DNA of 64,000 bases from an uncultured bacterium (GTDB taxonomy: Bacteria > Chlamydiota > Chlamydiia > Chlamydiales > SM23-39): assembly GCA_963716985.1 (NCBI GenBank), contig OY970323.1, forward strand, positions 1,280,001 to 1,344,000. The letters are read 5' to 3'. Shown here piece by piece: positions 1,157 through 51,466 of this stretch; position 1 is the stretch's first letter; each line of letters starts with the position of its first letter. The translations under genes were made by a program, and so were the position numbers. The notes below the pieces were generated by a model. The model did not search any database, had not been told where the DNA came from, and saw nothing but the letters and a program-made list of their open reading frames with translations.

Positions 1157-1792
1157 ATTTTTTTCTTCCCAGTCCAAAAACTCCTTCTCCAACTGGTTCA
1201 AACGTCGTCTCAGCACATCTTCTACAGGCAAATGAAGCGATTCTGCTCGTGCCAATAATCCGATCAAGACATCTCCGAGCTCCCTTTCGCTAGTAAAACC
1301 TTCCATTTCTCCTTGAGGGAGCAAAGAAGGAGCGTTTTTTCTCACCCTCTGCACCACTTTTTGCGCTTTTGCAAGAAGGGGAAGCGTTGCAGGTATGCCC
1401 ATTAAAGCAGAGGGCCTCTTCTTTTCTTTTTTTTTCTCTTCGTTCCAAATGTCTACAACCTCTTCTGCATTTTTGGCACTCTTGTCCCCAAAAATGTGGG
1501 GATGCCTGCGGATCAGCTTTTCACAAGAGGCGTCGATCAGATCTTGAAAAGAAAAAAAATCTTTCCGCTCGGCCAGTTTGGACAGAAAGATGAGCGTCCA
1601 TAAAAGATCAGCGGCCTCTTCTTTCATGGAAGAGGGGTCTTGCTCATCGATCGCTTCAATCAACTCATGCATCTCTTCCACCAGATAGGATTGGAGGGAA
1701 AAAAGAGTCTGTTTTTGGTCCCACGGGCACCCGCCGGGGCCAAGCAGGCGATCGCCAATTTCCAAAAGCTTTTCCATTCCTTTATTTTTCAT
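1136..1792 (-). CDS. mazG: MazG nucleoside triphosphate pyrophosphohydrolase
   Basis: GGCPWDQKQT, EEMHELIEAI, KLIRRHPHIFG. Confidence 0.92.
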   Translation of the reverse strand: MKNKGMEKLLEIGDRLLGPGGCPWDQKQTLFSLQSYLVEEMHELIEAIDEQDPSSMKEEAADLLWTLIFLSKLAERKDFFSFQDLIDASCEKLIRRHPHIFGDKSAKNAEEVVDIWNEEKKKEKKRPSALMGIPATLPLLAKAQKVVQRVRKNAPSLLPQGEMEGFTSERELGDVLIGLLARAESLHLPVEDVLRRRLNQLEKEFLDWEEKNIPETSL

Positions 1793-2107
1793 TTCTCAAT
1801 TCTCCGAGCGTTCGATAAATTGTAGCTTTTTGATGAAGAGAAATCGTAACAAAAAAGGTAGATTCCCATCAAAACTTTCCGACCTGTTCTTGAATGGAAC
1901 GTTAGAGAATCGTTAAAAAAAGCGCTACCATCTACGGGAGCGCACTTCTTTTTTCTCTGTTTTTTCGATTTTGGCAGAAGAGGGAGCCGATAACTTTTTT
2001 TTGGACGAAAGATCCTCGCATGATGTTAAAAAAAACAAGAAAACAACGAAGGAAAAAAGTGCAATTTTTTTCATATTTCTGCCCTATCTTTCCATATAAA
2101 TTGTACA

Positions 2108-3205
2108 CTATTTCCCGGCAAGTTCTTTTGAAGAAAAGAGGGTTTTACAAAGAGAAAACGCCTCCTCCATCTCTTGAGGAGAAACCTTTTTTAAACAACT
2201 TCCCTCTCGACAGGTGCGAAGATGCGGACAGCACTTTTGAAACACATGCATGTAAGGACATTGTCCTTGAAAGGCTAAATGGCGCCCACCCGGGGGCTTG
2301 AAGATCTCGTGCCGCGTCGGTCCAAAAAAACTAAAGGTGGCAAGATGGGGCAAAGTGGCTCCCAAATGGAGTACGCAAGAATCGACGGCCAAAAGCAGAT
2401 CCACCCCCGACATCAAAACCTGCAAAGCCGGCAAGGAGAGCTTCTCAACAATCATGCTTTGGGGAAAAGAGGAGGAGAGCTTTTGCACTTCTTCTTTTTC
2501 CGCTTCATTGCCCCATATGAAATAGAAAAAAGAGTCTTTTTCACAGGAAATCTTTTCCAAAAAGAATTTCCAGAGAGAGGGAGAAAGCTTCTTATTTTCC
2601 CAGCGAGAAGAGGGGCTCACCAGGACTCGAAAAGAGGCGTTTTGCTTCACAAGATCTTCGCAATACCGGCTCTCTCTGTTTTTAGAAAGACGCAACAGGA
2701 TTCCCTCTGCCGAAAAGGGCTGTGAATCCTTCAAAAACCTCTGTGCAATTTCCAAATATTGCAAGCTCATGTGTTTTGTCAAATCGGGGTCAAAATGAAT
2801 ATGCGTGACAAAAAGGTTGGGCCATTCGCGCACCGATTTTGCCCCAAACCCTATCTTTTTTTTGCCTTTGGCGAAAAAAGTGAAAAAAACCGATTTGCAA
2901 TTGCCCTGGAGATCAAAAATCCAATCATATTTTTTTTTGCGCAAAAAAAGAATTTGCCGAAAGAGAGAAAGAAGAGTCGAAAAACCGCCTTTGAGCCGCA
3001 CCCCAATGGCGCGGTCAATCTTCGGGTGGGCCGCCACCAGATCCTCATAGCTTTTTTCCACAAGCCAATCGATCTTCGCATCGGGATGGCGCGCGCGCAG
3101 ATATTCGGCAACAATAAAAGACTGAAGGATGTCTCCAAGCGAAGAGCATTTAACGATGAGAATCTTCTTTTTCAAAAGCAAAACCTTCTCTAAAGATCCA
3201 ACCAT
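2108..3205 (-). CDS. Glycosyltransferase family 9 (LPS heptosyltransferase, WaaC/WaaF-like)
   Basis: ILIVKCSSLGDIL, YDWIFDLQG, VDSCVLHL, FFGPT, Cys-rich C-terminus. Confidence 0.85.
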   Translation of the reverse strand: MVGSLEKVLLLKKKILIVKCSSLGDILQSFIVAEYLRARHPDAKIDWLVEKSYEDLVAAHPKIDRAIGVRLKGGFSTLLSLFRQILFLRKKKYDWIFDLQGNCKSVFFTFFAKGKKKIGFGAKSVREWPNLFVTHIHFDPDLTKHMSLQYLEIAQRFLKDSQPFSAEGILLRLSKNRESRYCEDLVKQNASFRVLVSPSSRWENKKLSPSLWKFFLEKISCEKDSFFYFIWGNEAEKEEVQKLSSSFPQSMIVEKLSLPALQVLMSGVDLLLAVDSCVLHLGATLPHLATFSFFGPTRHEIFKPPGGRHLAFQGQCPYMHVFQKCCPHLRTCREGSCLKKVSPQEMEEAFSLCKTLFSSKELAGK

Positions 3206-38970: not shown

Positions 38971-39303
38971 CAGTTCTGCTTCCTCCAATATATGCAGCAT
39001 TATTCATTGAGATTGTTTAAGAAAAAAGATTGAGATATTAGGGATTTATAATTATGCTCTCGCCTTTAAATACTTTACTATTGGATATTCAAGGTGCATT
39101 AATCAATGCCGTCGCACCTTCCTTGAGGGCTGTTACTGGGGTGTGACAAACAATCAGAAGACGTCCAACAATGGCCCAAGAGAGCCGTAGTACTACCCCC
39201 CTATTTTTTGTCCAACTTTACTACACAAACCTTTCAATAAAATCTTGACTTCACAACAACAAAACCGTCACAATGTTTAGTCATTTTTCCCGATAGGATA
39301 AAA

Positions 39304-39669
39304 ATGAAGAAAGAACGGCCTGGTGAATTGCACCAGAAAATCAAGCGGCTACGAACATCCAGAGATGCGCTGAAGCATCACAATTATGAAAAAACCCAGC
39401 AGAACAAAAAACTTCGCGACAGGAATGTAGAGATTGCTGAAAGTCGCGATCATTGGAAAGATCGTAATAAAGAGCTTGACCAGCAAAAGGAAGGCCTGGA
39501 GCAACAAATACAAGTTGCGCAGGAGAGATTACTGGAGGCTCAAGAGAAGATACAGACTGCAAAGAAAGAGATAGAGCGCGAGCGAATACGAGCTGATGAG
39601 GAACGCAGGCGCGCAGATCAACTCCAAACTGAAATTGAAGCAGCTCGAAAAAAAAAACAGGGGTCTTGA
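39304..39669 (+). CDS. IS orfA, coiled-coil protein
   Basis: 121-aa charged helical ORF ending just after an A10 run. Confidence 0.75.
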   Translation: MKKERPGELHQKIKRLRTSRDALKHHNYEKTQQNKKLRDRNVEIAESRDHWKDRNKELDQQKEGLEQQIQVAQERLLEAQEKIQTAKKEIERERIRADEERRRADQLQTEIEAARKKKQGS

Positions 39670-41020
39670 AAATTTGATTCCAAAGATGGGAGAGAAAGCC
39701 CCGCGTGGTTGGTATCCCATCTTGATGATCATCATGTGCATTAGGCTAGTGCTCCAAGCTACTATTTCATTTCGCGCAGCTCCTAAGGCGATTCATATTG
39801 CATTTTCTCAATTCGATGCTGTCAAAGATCAACCGATTCCAACATACAAAAGCATCAGCAGATGGCTAACGCAGATAGGTCTCTATAAGTTGAATTGCCC
39901 GAAAGAACAAGCAAATGACTGGGCACTAGTCATTGACAATTCAGTCCAAATTGGTACTCAAAAATGTCTTGTAATTTTAGGAATGCGTCTGAGTAAGTTT
40001 CAGAAGGGAAAAGCACTAACTCTCGAGGACATGGAAGTACTGATTATAGAGCTCCATGATCAGTCCAACGCGAATATTGTCTGCAGGGCATTGGAGAATG
40101 CACAGAAAAAAATTGGAAAGGCTGCTATGGTATGCGCTGATGATGGTTCAGATCTCCGAGGCGGAATTGAACTGTTTTGTCAGAAGCATGGTGCTGGCCG
40201 CGTTTTTGACACTATTCATAAAATTGGCACTTTTTTAAAAAAGATTTTCGAGGATGATTCGGAATGGCAAGCTTTTTCAACAGCTGCGGCAGCTGCCAAG
40301 AATAAGATGCAGCAAACACAGGCAGCTCATCTCATGCCACCCAACCAAAGGACGAAGTCTCGATTCCTCAATATCGAGATTCTTGCGCGATGGGGAATTG
40401 ACATTATGGTTGCCATAGATACGCCGAACCATCCTGACAAGGATCTGCTCGAACAATACTGTGGCTGGATTCGTCAATATACAGGGCTCATTGAAAGATT
40501 GAAACAATTTGACCTCATCAGTCGGAAAACTAGACAGTATATCCGCGAGAATGGAGTGAGTTTTAGCACAGGAGAGCAGATAGATGCATTTTTGGAAGAG
40601 GAAATGAAGTCCTTAAATTTTAATGCAGAAGCATGCGAATACGCTGGAGCGCTGATAGATTTCTTCTACGAACAGTCGAAAGTCGTCCCTTTTGGACAAA
40701 CCTGGCTTGGTTCAAGCGAAATCATAGAATCTCTATTTGGAAAATTGAAAAGTCTCGAGAATGACCAAAGCAAGGGAGGCTTCACGCCGCTTATTCTGGG
40801 AGTAGCTGCGTGCGTCGGTAAAGTGGATATTGCTTTGGTGAAGGCAGCCATGACACATATAAAGATAAGTGATGTCGACACGTGGACAAGAGAACAGGTC
40901 GGATCGACGCTACTTTCCAGAAGAAGGAAAGCTTTGGCGTTCTGGAGAAAAAAGAATTTTCAAAAAAATATTGTACACGAATCGGCTGGAGCCGTCAGGA
41001 GCGAAGCGATTGGTTTTTAG
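39596..41020 (+). CDS. IS orfB, DDE transposase (start uncertain)
   Basis: LVIDNS, CADDGSD, DTIH (DxxH), SSEIIESLFG. Confidence 0.8.
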   Translation: MRNAGAQINSKLKLKQLEKKNRGLENLIPKMGEKAPRGWYPILMIIMCIRLVLQATISFRAAPKAIHIAFSQFDAVKDQPIPTYKSISRWLTQIGLYKLNCPKEQANDWALVIDNSVQIGTQKCLVILGMRLSKFQKGKALTLEDMEVLIIELHDQSNANIVCRALENAQKKIGKAAMVCADDGSDLRGGIELFCQKHGAGRVFDTIHKIGTFLKKIFEDDSEWQAFSTAAAAAKNKMQQTQAAHLMPPNQRTKSRFLNIEILARWGIDIMVAIDTPNHPDKDLLEQYCGWIRQYTGLIERLKQFDLISRKTRQYIRENGVSFSTGEQIDAFLEEEMKSLNFNAEACEYAGALIDFFYEQSKVVPFGQTWLGSSEIIESLFGKLKSLENDQSKGGFTPLILGVAACVGKVDIALVKAAMTHIKISDVDTWTREQVGSTLLSRRRKALAFWRKKNFQKNIVHESAGAVRSEAIGF

Positions 41021-41717
41021 TGGTCAACTATCAATTTGTCACACCCCAGGCTGTTACTGCTGATATTGACTTAAAGAACAAAAAGTTAATTTTGTTTTTT
41101 TTCTACGATGGAATCATTACTGATAAATTATTTGACTTAGCAAGTGTTGCGGCTACTGAAGCCGGCGTTTCGCTGCCCGAATATTTTACTGATGATCACT
41201 ATGTTCAATTGGATTATCCCAAAGAAATTCCCATTCAAGGCAAACTTGCTTATTTACGATACGAACCTCATTTACCGAAATTTAAGAAAGAAAACCGATC
41301 TTATCTTCTAAAACAATCGAGGCCATCCGTTGTTCTTCTGCTTGATATGCAAGAAGCTTTGTTGGGAAAAGTAACCCCCTCTTTACGTCGCGCAGCAGGA
41401 GAAGTCGACATCGAAAATAAACGATTGATCTTTTATTTTGTATACGATGGAAAAATCTCTGAAACAGATTATCGATTGGCTACTGCTGCAATTCAAGAGT
41501 CCGGCTCTTCTTTTCCCGGCTATATAATAGAATCTCACATCGATAGAATCGACTATCCAAATGAAAGATCCACATACAAATGTTATGGAGCTTATTTAAG
41601 ACAAGAAGATTGAGGAAGCTCAGGCGAGCCCGGCTTTGCCAGGAGATGTAGGCGCACCTCATGTTTTCTGGAGAAAAATTGAGCGGCTGTCGGGCTGTGT
41701 TCTCTACTGATGGAGAG

Positions 41718-47666: not shown

Positions 47667-48051
47667 AGACTTCCTCCTTTAATTTTTTAGAGCTATGTTT
47701 ATAAAAACATCAAAATTTAACAATTTTTCTTTCTTAAACTTAATATATTAAATTTATTATTTATTTATCAACTGTAAAATAAAAACTTACAAGCTTTAAA
47801 ACAATTCCAAATGGCGACAAACGCCTCCAGAGACACCCTTGGGCAAGGTTTTTTAAGATAAATGAATTTTAAAAAAAATTATTTTTTACATAAAAAATAA
47901 AAAAGAATCGAATAAATTTTCATTAAAGATGGTCGAGTTTTTTTAAATATTTTAAATTTTTTAAAAAGTTAAAAAAAACCGATAGTTTCGGTTTGTTAGA
48001 ACCGGAAGACTTTTTTAGAGATAGGCCAAGAACCTGATCCTTACCCACAAG

Positions 48052-51000
48052 TCAATACCCACAACCTAAAAGCGCTCCCGTTAACATGTCTTGCAATCGT
48101 TTATAACCCTTCCAAATCGTTTGCCATCCAGGCTCCCCATCTGATTTGCGCCCTATAAAACCTCCCATACGAGCCAGAGAACGCCAGAAATCTTTCACCG
48201 TTTTCAATTTCACCATCAGATGCCTTTCTATGAGCGTAATCCAAGACTTGGGCACTTTTTCTTCGACCGGTGTTTCCGGAGACAACCGACACCGTTCTCT
48301 CATCGATAAAAGTTGCGTCGCTATCACCCCAATCATTCCAAATAGTGCAAGAATTCGGCTCGCCTGTTTAAGCTGATTATCTTCGATTCGAAAGCCCGTT
48401 TTGACCGCCTTATGATAATCCTCTATAAGCCAGCGTCGGCGGTAGATCCTGACGATTCTTAGGGAGTCTTCTTGATTGTTGACAGGAAGATTGGTGAGTA
48501 GAGGAGCGGATTGCTCCGCTCCCCCCTCCTCAGAACCAGGACTTGCAGGTTTCCCGCATCCGGCTCCCGAACAGTCCTTTTAGGTTTTGATTACCTTAGG
48601 AGTTCCTATGATGCATTTGATTTTCCACTTCATTGGAAAGCCCACTTTTTCCAGAACTTTCTCGAATTTCTCCCAACTCATTTTCTTTCTGCCACCTTTC
48701 CTGTTGATCCATTTGAAGATAGCTCTTTCGCATTGGAAGATAAATCCGTTTACCGCTCTAGAGTTGTCGGTCACTGCATGATAGTTGATCCACCCTTTGA
48801 TGATTGGCAGTATCTGTTGAAACATTATCAAGGTTTTCATGGCTTTATTCTCTTTCAGAAATTTTGATAATCCCTGAAGTTTCGAGTGCTTCCGATCTCC
48901 TCTGCTGCGGACTTTTAATCTCCAGAAGTTCCCTTTCTGCGCTTTTTCCCAGAAGAAGGTAAATCCCAGAAATTTGAAAACAGGCAGCTTTTGTTTCTTG
49001 GCCGCCATTTCTGCTATTCTTTTCGATCCCGAGGAGTGCAGATGCGACTTGTCTTCGTGAACCGCAAGTCCATATTTCTGCAACCTTTGGGTAAACGCTC
49101 TATAGAACCTTTCCGCATCTTCACTGCATTCGAATACAAATACCATATCATCGCAGAAACGAATCGGAAAGATCTTTCCCTTGAGATATGTTCGAATGGA
49201 TTCTATCCAACTATCCACCACTTCATGTAGGTAGATATTTGATAAAATCGGTGAAGTGACCGATCCCTGTGGGCATCCGACTAAATTCTTTTGCACTACC
49301 CCATCGTTTGTGATGGTTTCTGCTTGCAACAGAATATGTATCAGCCTCAGGAATTTTGGATCGTTGATTTTCTTCTGTAGTATAGCCTCCATTTCCATAT
49401 GTGGAATAGAGTTAAAATACTTCCGAATATCAATCTCCAATAGAGCGCCATCTTTGCACTCGTATACTGCTTGGTGCAAAGCGGTAATAGCATCATGGCA
49501 GCTTTTCCCGGGCCTATATCCAAAAGAACTCGGCAGAAAGAGCGGTTCATAGATTTTGTTCAAAATCTCTCCCGCTGCCATCTGCACCAATTTGTCCTCT
49601 ATGCAGGATATTGCCAGAGGTCTTTTGCCTCCATCTGCTTTGGGTATTTCAACTATCTTTGATGGTTGTGGCGCATATTGCGCCCGATGCACTTTCGCAG
49701 CGAGCATTCGGAGATTTTCCTCCAGATTTTTGCCATATGCTTCTTTTGTTATACCATCAATTCCTACAGCTTTAGTTCCATCAAGCTGTGCAAATGCTCT
49801 CATCAGCATTTCCTCGTTGATAAGATGTCCCAGATTATTGAACACCAGATCATGATTTCCTGCCGAAAGATCTCCTATACGATCCAGCTTCATTGACACT
49901 GTATATCTGTCTTTGCTGTGTACAGACATTGTTTCCACCTTTTCGTTCGTTTCTGTTCTATCCACCCTTTGCTCCCCGATCGTTACTCGGTTCCTCGCTA
50001 CTATGGTGGACTCCGCCATCCTTATCCCATCTTTGCAGTCTTACGTTCATGGCGCTTGAACCACAAATACTCCCTTCGGAGAGCAATAAGGACTTCCCAA
50101 GTTCCGTCACACTTCTCTACAAGCTCGCCAATGCTTAATATCCCGGTGCTTGATGATCGCAGGGTTTCGCCATTTTGACCCGCTTCCCATCTGTTGCCTG
50201 CTCCTAATACGAAAGTTTCGGCTTGCACGATATACCTCTCGAGACTTAACGCATTCACCTCACGGTTTTGGCTCGAATGTTTCGCTATCTACGCTTCAGC
50301 TCTTTTGTTACCTCCGGAGTTGCAAGATTCGCTACATAATGTGGTGGCTATCCACTTTTTATGCCTGGACTTTCACCAGTAGAAGTGCGCAGCTTCTCTT
50401 GGCGCACCGTAACCAATAACCATTCTAACCTGGGCCTATCGGGACACCACACTCGAATATACGTCACTTCTTCACCTGCTGCAGAACACCCATTTCCTGG
50501 AGGAAACAGCTTCGCTTTGACCCAAGTTATTTCTAGTGTCACTTCACCACCAAATTCTTCGCCTTTTGCCTTCATATACAGCGCGGATGTGCACTTGGCT
50601 GTCTGTTGACGAATCCATGAAAAAAGACGTGTCTTCTCGCCATTAATCTCGACTTTGCGATCATGTCGCGCCCGCACTACATATTTCCACCCAAGCCTGT
50701 TTGCATTATTCAGAAAATCATAAATATCATTGGCGCGATCGCCAACGCTCACCCAGTTCTCCTGAGGGCGCCCCATTTTCTCTAACGTCCTCAGCCACAC
50801 CTCAGATTCCTTCGAATCACTCGCCGATTTTTCTTCGGGCCGCACCCAAGCCTCCTGGTAACCAAGTCCCAAAATTTCGGTTTCTTCAGATTCATGATAT
50901 TTGGCGACCAGGCATGAGTGAAACATGAGTCCATTTCCGTTACTGTCGGAAGTTGGTCCAAGTCCATGTGTCCATGGATGGGAATTGAACAAAAGTTCTG

Positions 51001-51274
51001 AGCCATCCTGAATGAACAAGACAGTCTCTTCCGAGAAGCGGGCCTTTTCCAACACCCGATGCCAGTGGGGCTGTTGAAGCGCCTGATGCGTGATTTTGGG
51101 ATTACTAAAAAAGCGATACGTCGCTTTGAGATCTGCCCAATCTTCAAAGCGTCCCGCTAATGACTTTTCAGGATCTTCTGCGCAGCCTATTGCAATATCA
51201 ACAGCTCTCTTCTGCAAACGAGGGTCACCTACATCGATCTTGGCAAATTGGTCGTACATCCATTGTTCTTTCAT
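48052..51274 (-). CDS. IS50-like transposase, 435 aa after intron removal (exons 51274-50408 and 48492-48052)
   Basis: GDPRL, IQDGSEL, VGDRANDI, junction WLLVT|NLPV, YRRRWLIEDYHK, GGFIGRKSDGEPG. Confidence 0.9.
48493..50407 (-). mobile_element. Group II intron, 1915 nt
   Basis: 5' GTGCG; domain V GAGCCGGATGCGGGAAACCTGCAAGTCCTGGTTC (48566-48533); domain VI with bulged A; 3' end CTCACC. Confidence 0.95.
48580..49929 (-). CDS. Group II intron reverse transcriptase/maturase, no endonuclease domain
   Basis: AVGIDG, IPKADGGKRPLAI, SFGYRPGKS, GCPQGS, RFCDD, FLGF, domain X GWINYH. Confidence 0.95.
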   Translation of the reverse strand: MSVHSKDRYTVSMKLDRIGDLSAGNHDLVFNNLGHLINEEMLMRAFAQLDGTKAVGIDGITKEAYGKNLEENLRMLAAKVHRAQYAPQPSKIVEIPKADGGKRPLAISCIEDKLVQMAAGEILNKIYEPLFLPSSFGYRPGKSCHDAITALHQAVYECKDGALLEIDIRKYFNSIPHMEMEAILQKKINDPKFLRLIHILLQAETITNDGVVQKNLVGCPQGSVTSPILSNIYLHEVVDSWIESIRTYLKGKIFPIRFCDDMVFVFECSEDAERFYRAFTQRLQKYGLAVHEDKSHLHSSGSKRIAEMAAKKQKLPVFKFLGFTFFWEKAQKGNFWRLKVRSRGDRKHSKLQGLSKFLKENKAMKTLIMFQQILPIIKGWINYHAVTDNSRAVNGFIFQCERAIFKWINRKGGRKKMSWEKFEKVLEKVGFPMKWKIKCIIGTPKVIKT

Positions 51275-51466
51275 GATACCTGCTCCTTCTTGAAAAACGG
51301 AGCACATGATACTAAATTTTAGACTTGTGGGTAAGGATCAGGCCAAGAACCGCATACATCACCGGAAATGCTTGCCAGCGCCGCAAATCCATCCTTTTCG
51401 CTCAGGGGCGGCTCACAGGCCAAACCTTAAGACGAAAAGAGACAGGGAAATACTTCCGGGAACAAT

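Follow-up and report, generated by a model that had tools for sequence, protein, structure and literature searches.

An endonuclease-less group II intron within the transposase gene of an IS4/IS50-type insertion sequence in a chlamydia-like bacterium

A complete ORF-bearing group II intron was found in sense orientation inside an otherwise intact transposase gene of an IS4/IS50-type insertion sequence (IS) in the window, i.e., the whole 64,000-nucleotide stretch of DNA analysed here. The original prediction had proposed this arrangement, and Rfam matches, Pfam matches and the strand of the two elements corroborate it (Table 1). In our judgement, the arrangement is quite probably the product of a one-off insertion of a young intron without an endonuclease into a solitary, diverged copy of the IS, which itself is probably largely silenced. 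As one mobile element nested in another, it is a tidy but ordinary case.

Table 1 Features of the intron-bearing insertion sequence in window coordinates
Feature	Position	Strand	Basis
Target-site duplication, upstream copy (GTTCTTGGC)	51342..51350	-	Same 9 bases at both IS ends
Left terminal inverted repeat of the IS (CTGATCCTTACCCACAAGTC)	51322..51341	-	20/20 complementary to the right end
Transposase exon 1, 289 codons; Tn5-type DNA-binding domain and both catalytic D motifs	50408..51274	-	PF14706, 63.9 bits; D motifs via alignment of the sister copy to Tn5
Group II intron, 1,915 nt, GUGCG to CUCACC	48493..50407	-	Rfam matches, shared copy ends, empty-site comparison
Intron domain I region	50132..50373	-	Full model 1-225 of Rfam RF02005 (group-II-D1D4-6), E 7e-22, 81.2 bits (gathering score 49)
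Candidate EBS2 GGUAUA, internal loop of the Rfam consensus structure	50231..50236	-	Putative pairing with -8..-13 of four distinct target sites, 4-5/6
Candidate EBS1 CGUAUU, hairpin loop of the Rfam consensus structure	50206..50211	-	Best 5-/6-mer against -1..-6 of four target sites, 4-6/6; putative
Intron-encoded protein (IEP), 449 aa from the ATG after GGTGGA; RT and maturase domains	48580..49929	-	RVT_1, GIIM, TIGR04416
Intron domains V and VI	48493..48568	-	RF00029, 39.0 bits, E 1.2e-5, full model 1-77
Transposase exon 2, 146 codons and stop; YREK with catalytic E, and Tn5 dimerisation domain	48052..48492	-	PF01609 tail, PF02281
Right terminal inverted repeat of the IS	48034..48053	-	Complementary to the left end
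Target-site duplication, downstream copy (GTTCTTGGC)	48025..48033	-	Same 9 bases as the upstream copy

The IS runs from position 51341 to position 48034 on the minus strand and measures 3,308 bp including the intron. Its terminal inverted repeats and the 9-bp target duplication on either side are perfect, as had been claimed. Joining the exons gives ...EWLLVT|NLPVNN... within an open frame of 435 codons that starts with the ATG at 51274, and the intron lies between codons 289 and 290 in phase 0. The D motifs FIQDGSE and VGDRAND are both encoded by exon 1 and the YREK/E motif, YRRRWLIEDYHKAVK, by exon 2; an intron-free sister transposase from the same genome aligns with the Tn5 transposase at Y-x2-R-x3-E-x6-K as well as at the two D motifs, which supports the DDE/YREK assignment made earlier. 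The transposase matched the Pfam families Tnp_DNA_bind (PF14706, 63.9 bits), DDE_Tnp_1 (PF01609), and Dimer_Tnp_Tn5 (PF02281, 35.6 bits), and the NCBIfam IS4-family model NF033590, run on the sister copy, scored 267.7 bits against a cutoff of 160. The dN/dS ratio between the interrupted transposase and the sister was 0.14 over 434 codons, suggesting that the interrupted gene was functional until recently.

Since the intron and the transposase share the minus strand, the intron is in sense orientation. It begins with GUGCG (50407-50403), in agreement with the GUGYG consensus of group II introns, and the domain I-IV ribozyme structure was recognized over the full RF02005 model. The RF00029 match to domains V and VI falls one bit below the gathering score of 40 and stops exactly at the last base of the intron. 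Domain V (D5) has 34 nt with an AGC triad, and in domain VI (D6) the A located 7 nt before the 3' end is unpaired. A class IIC assignment was rejected in view of the 34-nt D5 and the presence of an EBS2-like element. The ends of the intron are fixed by three lines of evidence: five copies in the genome share the same ends, six empty sister sites are gapless, and the D5/D6 model terminates at 48493. Only 0-1 nt in 1,915 separate the five copies from one another, and the IEP frame is open in all of them, so the intron was clearly active recently, judging from its sequence.

The longest ORF of the IEP encodes 479 aa and starts at 50019. The protein scored 112.2 bits for RVT_1, 27.9 bits for GIIM, and 296.5 bits for TIGR04416 (cutoff 300); in the Pfam search, only RVT_1 and GIIM matched, and no endonuclease or HNH domain was found. 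Its nearest solved structures are group II reverse transcriptases, with the IIC type at E 1e-33 and LtrA nearly as good. Full-length matches at 50-63% identity, of equal length and domain content, came from metagenomes, Legionella longbeachae, Regiella, Cysteiniphilum, and an Armatimonadota MAG, and no relative above 63% identity was present among the best 120 matches listed. These relatives form a family of ~440-450-aa endonuclease-less group II IEPs, with which the IEP described here agrees in length and domains. In a sample of 301 genomes of the phylum, matches to the IEP at E <= 1e-60 were confined to eight, this genome counted, and identity peaked at 40% outside it. The earlier impression that such introns are few in the phylum is thus borne out, and the intron lineage looks imported, not native to its phylum.

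Six intron-free, full-length sister copies of the IS are present in the genome, each flanked by a 9-bp duplication and differing mutually by 0-3 nt, besides two partial copies. The matches to exon 1 and exon 2 abut in all six, with neither gap nor overlap, confirming the prediction that removal of 50407-48493 would restore WLLVT|NLPV and a stop-free 435-aa frame. From -11 to +30, all six sister sites have the same sequence as the occupied site. The window IS is diverged from these paralogs (90% identity in exon 1 and 97% in exon 2), and the intron-bearing variant exists as a single copy. Because six identical sister sites are empty, the IS50 site does not appear to be an efficient homing site for this intron. 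The empty sister copies might postdate the intron burst. It should be noted that six paralogs hold the GTTACG|AATCTT junction in their DNA, and a plain test of that junction, as proposed for detecting splicing, is therefore confounded.

The other four intron copies are also in sense orientation and lie inside genes of other insertion sequences. Occupancy was 1/7 for the IS4/IS50-like family, 1/6 for an IS66-like family, 1/8 for an unclassified 1.9-kb IS, and 2/2 for an IS200-like element. Five IS66-like and seven unclassified-IS copies are uninterrupted at sites identical to the occupied ones, so that excising the intron exactly would restore the host sequence there as in the IS50-like element. 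For the ORF of the unclassified IS (474 aa), an atlas search returned unnamed clusters and weak Mutator-like leads only. Across the four unrelated IS families, every copy is in sense in the transposase (or sole) ORF of its host element, and IS DNA appears, from the sites found, to be hit far more than base pairing predicts. Endonuclease-less introns that use a lagging-strand template are expected to point with the replication fork. Four of the five copies follow fork direction (ori ~105 kb, ter ~1,205 kb), a pattern that is not significant whether counted as 4/5 or, with the IS200 pair as one event, as 3/4.

A 1.9-kb repeat present in five near-identical copies is a well-known source of assembly errors, and the repeat could in principle have been wrongly threaded into the IS. 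However, the flanks on either side belong to this IS variant alone, as their divergence from the paralogs indicates. A mis-join would also not be expected to coincide exactly with the GUGCG and D6 ends, to preserve phase 0 and to hit a site obeying the pairing rules of the other copies, as the junctions do here. We regard an assembly artefact as very improbable.

The original prediction went further and proposed that the 3.3-kb composite could move as one unit, spreading the intron together with its homing site. For this to happen, the intron would have to splice productively so that transposase is made. The perfect ends, the 9-bp duplication, the intact spliced frame and the past purifying selection are in line with such movement, as is the evident activity of the intron, and the IS200 pair makes joint movement of IS and intron conceivable in this organism. 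However, the genome contains exactly one composite of this IS, the other four intron copies being in other elements, and no further copy of it was found among the 60 other genomes of the family. The sole close relative of this IS variant in those genomes is a truncated, intron-free relic in another genus with 96% identity; this copy breaks off 17 nt short of the intron site, has no intron adjoining, and is uninformative on the site for that reason. Moreover, the intron-free sister variant multiplied while the intron-bearing variant did not. The proposed count of IS copies with and without the intron gave one against six; a single composite was half of what the prediction had named as evidence against itself, the other half being a lack of spliced product. 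This comparison of copy numbers is, however, only one, and chance could account for it. Overall, we consider joint transposition of the IS50-like composite unlikely, and a one-off insertion into a solitary IS copy remains our preferred explanation.

The IS200-like pair makes a stronger case for joint movement, or else for true homing. This 622-bp element occurs only as two intron-bearing copies, which are 100% identical, lie at different loci and share a private base change in the intron; no empty full copy exists in the genome, and a search of the 60 other family genomes did not detect the element. A hairpin lies just upstream of the IS200 insertion site; it belongs to the IS200-like element itself, and the other three sites have none. 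The intron sits immediately behind the start codon of tnpA, and joint movement of this composite would consequently require productive splicing. A broader possibility is that target choice goes beyond EBS/IBS pairing and that at least the IS200-intron composite moves as a unit. The intron might, for example, reverse-splice into the abundant transcripts of transposase genes and then recombine as cDNA, or it might make use of single-stranded transposition intermediates. If this were true, one ribozyme would gate transposase production of several IS families, although we hold the combined proposal to be rather doubtful.

A search of genome contigs for loci related to the IEP yielded, among 36 pattern matches, three distant loci with 34-46% identity. 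These are too distant for aligning ribozyme loops, so the candidate EBS1 and EBS2 were assigned solely from the Rfam consensus and the four target sites that differ in sequence. Their pairing scores thus come from the same four sites from which they were derived, without covariation from related introns. An alternative EBS1, CGUAAG (intron nt 363), would pair perfectly at the IS50 site and poorly at the other three, and CGUAUU was preferred. Position +1 is A at all four sites, and the occupied sites otherwise have in common only about A-Y-A-Y-G|AA plus U-A at -11/-10. Under the putative pairing, the IS50 site shares the lowest total among the four sites, with an IBS1 of 5/6 including an internal mismatch and an IBS2 of 4/6, two of which are G-U; about 1,600-1,750 sites in the genome would pair at least as well.

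WLLVT|NLPV might nevertheless be a true retrohoming site, with the sister copies empty either through a base change at -12 or because they originated after the last homing event. Within -40..+30, the only difference between the occupied copy (T at -12) and the six empty copies (C at -12) is indeed this base, which falls in the span of about -8 to -13 normally covered by IBS2. However, the candidate EBS2 would face -12 with a U, and neither T nor C pairs with that base. The occupied sites, four in kind, have little in common and none repeats another, and two other IS families, in which occupied and empty copies have fully identical sites, show equally low occupancy. We therefore find retrohoming to this site no more credible than joint transposition of the IS50-like composite. 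The pairing model is built on four sites only, and the IEP could read base -12.

Under the preferred explanation of a one-off insertion, an intron with IIB-like EBS1/EBS2/EBS3 target recognition would have entered the IS once, in sense and in phase 0. The most likely route would be ectopic retrotransposition at low frequency, as opposed to homing to a site that the intron prefers. The two catalytic aspartates in exon 1 are thereby parted from the catalytic glutamate/YREK and the dimerisation domain in exon 2. If the unspliced frame is read, a stop follows 19 codons into the intron, before these exon 2 parts, and the unspliced RNA would give only a 308-residue end-binding fragment. A full transposase from the window copy consequently requires accurate splicing and exon ligation, as originally proposed. 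Low splicing would go together with silencing, and the window copy is probably largely silenced and a harmless parking place for the intron, comparable to ISRm2011-2 for RmInt1.

For annotation, automatic gene calling will give two transposase fragments and a reverse transcriptase where there is really one intact, intron-bearing gene. The window also offers a clean, empty-site-controlled example of an intron parked in a transposase gene, in a chlamydia-like lineage in which group II introns are uncommon. The spread of occupancy among the IS families (1/7, 1/6, 1/8, and 2/2) provides a small natural experiment on whether introns restrain their host IS or ride along.

The IS described here and Tn5/IS50 have the same Pfam domains, a 9-bp target duplication, and D motifs and YREK that can be aligned (E 6e-35 against sequences of Tn5 transposase structures), and the end sequence of the IS presumably resembles the IS50 outside end. 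However, the transposase has 434-435 aa compared with 477 aa for the Tn5 transposase, the gene is interrupted by an intron, and the alignment consists of three separate stretches with modest scores, which indicates a distant relationship.

The closest parallel for the intron is RmInt1 of Sinorhizobium meliloti, which carries the label of bacterial class D. ISRm2011-2, the host of RmInt1, is of the IS630 type, whereas the host here is IS4/IS50-type. RmInt1 has four cytidines across the 3' splice site, and no such run is present here (CUCACC|AAUC). Both IEPs lack an endonuclease domain, and both introns lie in sense inside an IS transposase ORF, where intron stops end translation early. As described in published work, RmInt1 interrupts the ISRm2011-2 transposase, IS mobility needs splicing, splicing in vivo amounts to 0.07%, and the intron has been proposed to limit the spread of its host IS (PMC3035460, PMC4238363). 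The same papers report that RmInt1 homes efficiently to its natural IS site (PMC4238363, PMC3035460), whereas six equivalent sister sites are empty here. Splicing-dependent transposase expression has thus been published for RmInt1/ISRm2011-2 since at least 2010-2014, and the case predicted here from sequence leaves that understanding unchanged.

The transposase gene of the window's IS4/IS50-type element is split by a group II intron, and the original prediction of this anatomy was correct throughout, including the boundaries, the restored junction WLLVT|NLPV, the 435 codons, the DDE/YREK motifs, the terminal inverted repeats (TIRs) and the target site duplication (TSD), a 9-base GTTCTTGGC on both flanks. 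The intron was inserted exactly between transposase codons 289 and 290, with both D motifs in exon 1 and YRRRWLIEDYHKAVK in exon 2. Since the unspliced frame runs through 19 intron codons and then meets a stop, it follows directly from the split-gene sequence that transposase synthesis from this copy requires splicing, as had been proposed.

Coordinates and properties of the split element, its intron and the other elements that carry the intron (window positions, or positions on G000:C1, the sole contig of the window's own genome)
Feature	Location	Strand	Properties	Copies with intron
Window IS (IS4-type)	51341-48034	-	3,308 bp; perfect 20-bp inverted repeat CTGATCCTTACCCACAAGTC at ends	1/7 full-length copies
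Transposase exon 1	51274-50408	-	289 codons; Tn5-type DNA-binding domain	
Group II intron	50407-48493	-	1,915 nt; 5' end GUGCG	
Transposase exon 2	48492-48055	-	146 codons; DDE_Tnp_1 tail and Tn5 dimerisation domain	
IS66-like element			1,756 bp; 8-bp duplications	1/6 copies
Unclassified IS			1,912 bp; TIR TGGGGTGTGACAAA; 9-bp duplications; 474-aa ORF	1/8 copies
Unclassified IS, empty copy	39137-41048	+	seven further genome copies	
IS200-like element			622 bp	2/2 copies
IS200-intron composite (loci L003, L005, L041, L042)	G000:C1:755320-757856	+		
IS200-intron composite (same loci)	G000:C1:1969993-1972529	-		

The domain I region of the intron matched the whole length of the Rfam model RF02005 (81.2 bits, gathering score 49). 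RF00029 (D5/D6), also matched in full, fell on the last 76 intron nucleotides and ended exactly at 48493 (E 1.2e-5), with a score of 39.0 bits that was one bit below the gathering score. The domain IV ORF carries RVT_1 and group II maturase domains, and a domain search found no endonuclease family in it. The intron-encoded protein (IEP) scored 296.5 bits against TIGR04416 (cutoff 300), and its closest solved structures are group II intron reverse transcriptases. Among the best 120 matches, the closest IEP relative was a metagenome protein with 63% identity, followed by proteins with 50-54%; these relatives included proteins of Legionella longbeachae, Regiella, Cysteiniphilum and an Armatimonadota MAG. 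Within a 301-genome sample of the phylum, eight genomes, the window's own included, had an IEP match at E <= 1e-60, consistent with the earlier statement that such introns are few in Chlamydiae. None of the matches outside its own genome exceeded 40% identity, and the single same-genus genome of the sample had no match at E <= 1e-60.

The genome, a single 2.07-Mb contig, contains six more full-length copies and two partial copies of an intron-free sister variant of 1,385 bp, whose regions matching exon 1 and exon 2 are 90% and 97% identical to the window copy, respectively. These two regions meet end to end in all six full-length sister copies, which independently fixes the intron ends. Around the insertion point these copies are identical to the window copy over positions -11 to +30, and the sole difference within -40 to +30 is at -12 (C in the sister copies, T in the window copy). 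Among themselves they show 0-3 nt differences; each has a separate 9-bp duplication, and every one encodes an intact 434-aa transposase. One intact copy scored 267.7 bits against the NCBIfam IS4-family model (cutoff 160), and its transposase aligned with Tn5 transposase sequences (E 6e-35), matching both aspartate motifs and Y-x2-R-x3-E-x6-K.

The dN/dS of 0.14 between the window's spliced coding sequence and the sister copies indicates that purifying selection acted on the interrupted gene during most of the time since the variants separated. Between the window IS (48052-51274) and the sister copy at G000:C1:629443-630827, dS was 0.35 in exon 1 and 0.085 in exon 2, and this unevenness hints that IS variants have undergone recombination or gene conversion with one another, in the vicinity of the intron site or downstream of it. 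A partial sister copy at G000:C1:497828-499408, whose first 248 bp show 81% identity and are separated by a gap of ~175 bp from the remainder, is rearranged or hybrid. A 3'-truncated relic in a genome of another genus of the same family (locus L045, G172:C39:9855-13771, positions 1501-2417, minus strand) is 96% identical to the window variant, closer than the own-genome paralogs (90%), which points to IS exchange between lineages.

Five intron copies, with 0-1 nt differences, occur in the genome, all in sense within an open frame and inside repeated mobile elements. A sixth match at G000:C1:383069-383148 (80 nt, 73%, to intron nt 1553-1635 in the IEP maturase region) probably belongs to another group II intron or is a relic. 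The eight copies of the unclassified IS match at 100% over aligned segments of 1.84 kb and 69-71 bp; its 474-aa ORF had no Pfam or NCBIfam match and fell into unnamed Atlas clusters, which gave weak Mutator-like/DUF6399 leads. The intron of the IS200-like element immediately follows the tnpA ATG. Both IS200-intron composites are 100% identical, have the private intron change G1887A in common and differ in their flanks; instead of an empty full copy, the genome contains only a 3' fragment of 144 bp (G000:C1:861868-862011). This pair may have arisen by joint transposition of IS and intron, or its target may be the true homing site of the intron.

The four distinct target sites have in common about A-Y-A-Y-G|AA, plus U-A at -11/-10. 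When the first 520 nucleotides of the intron were scanned, CGUAUU (window 50211-50206) ranked top for pairing with -1 to -6 and GGUAUA (50236-50231) for pairing with -8 to -12. In the Rfam consensus they fall in a hairpin loop and an internal loop of the D1 d-arm, where the exon-binding sites EBS1 and EBS2 of IIB-like introns lie; we infer that they are EBS1 and EBS2. As scored on the same four sites from which the assignment was derived, the putative pairing with IBS1 and IBS2 (each out of six) was 6 and 4 for IS200, 5 and 5 for IS66, 4 and 5 for the unclassified IS, and 5 and 4 for the window IS, with equal values for its occupied and empty variants. Pairing at least as good is available at about 1,593-1,754 sites in the genome; 12.5% of these sites are in repeats, which make up 11.4-11.8% of the genome. 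That all four independent insertions are in repeats is thus unexpected by pairing alone (chance roughly 2e-4). Such a bias is usually explained by purging of insertions into host genes, and targeting bias may also be its source. Four of the five copies are oriented with the replication fork, which suggests a lagging-strand-template route; the excess is not significant, and origin and terminus were placed by GC skew only.

The proposal that the composite moves as one unit was not supported. The count of IS copies with and without the intron that it called for gave one intron-bearing and six intron-free full-length copies; there is one composite only, it is the intron-free sister variant that has multiplied, and its sites are still empty. 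The arrangement is most economically read as a rare ectopic insertion into a dispensable transposase gene, an insertion that would be tolerated because nothing depends on the interrupted gene.

Among the papers returned by one full-text search, none dealt with native group II introns of chlamydiae, as judged from titles and abstract openings. The closest case described is that of RmInt1 of Sinorhizobium meliloti, which, as in the window IS, lies within an IS transposase gene, that of ISRm2011-2. For RmInt1, splicing is described as indispensable for mobility of the IS, a splicing level of 0.07% was measured in vivo, and the intron has been suggested to keep its host IS in check (PMC3035460, PMC4238363); the splicing-dependent mechanism of the original prediction is therefore already in print.
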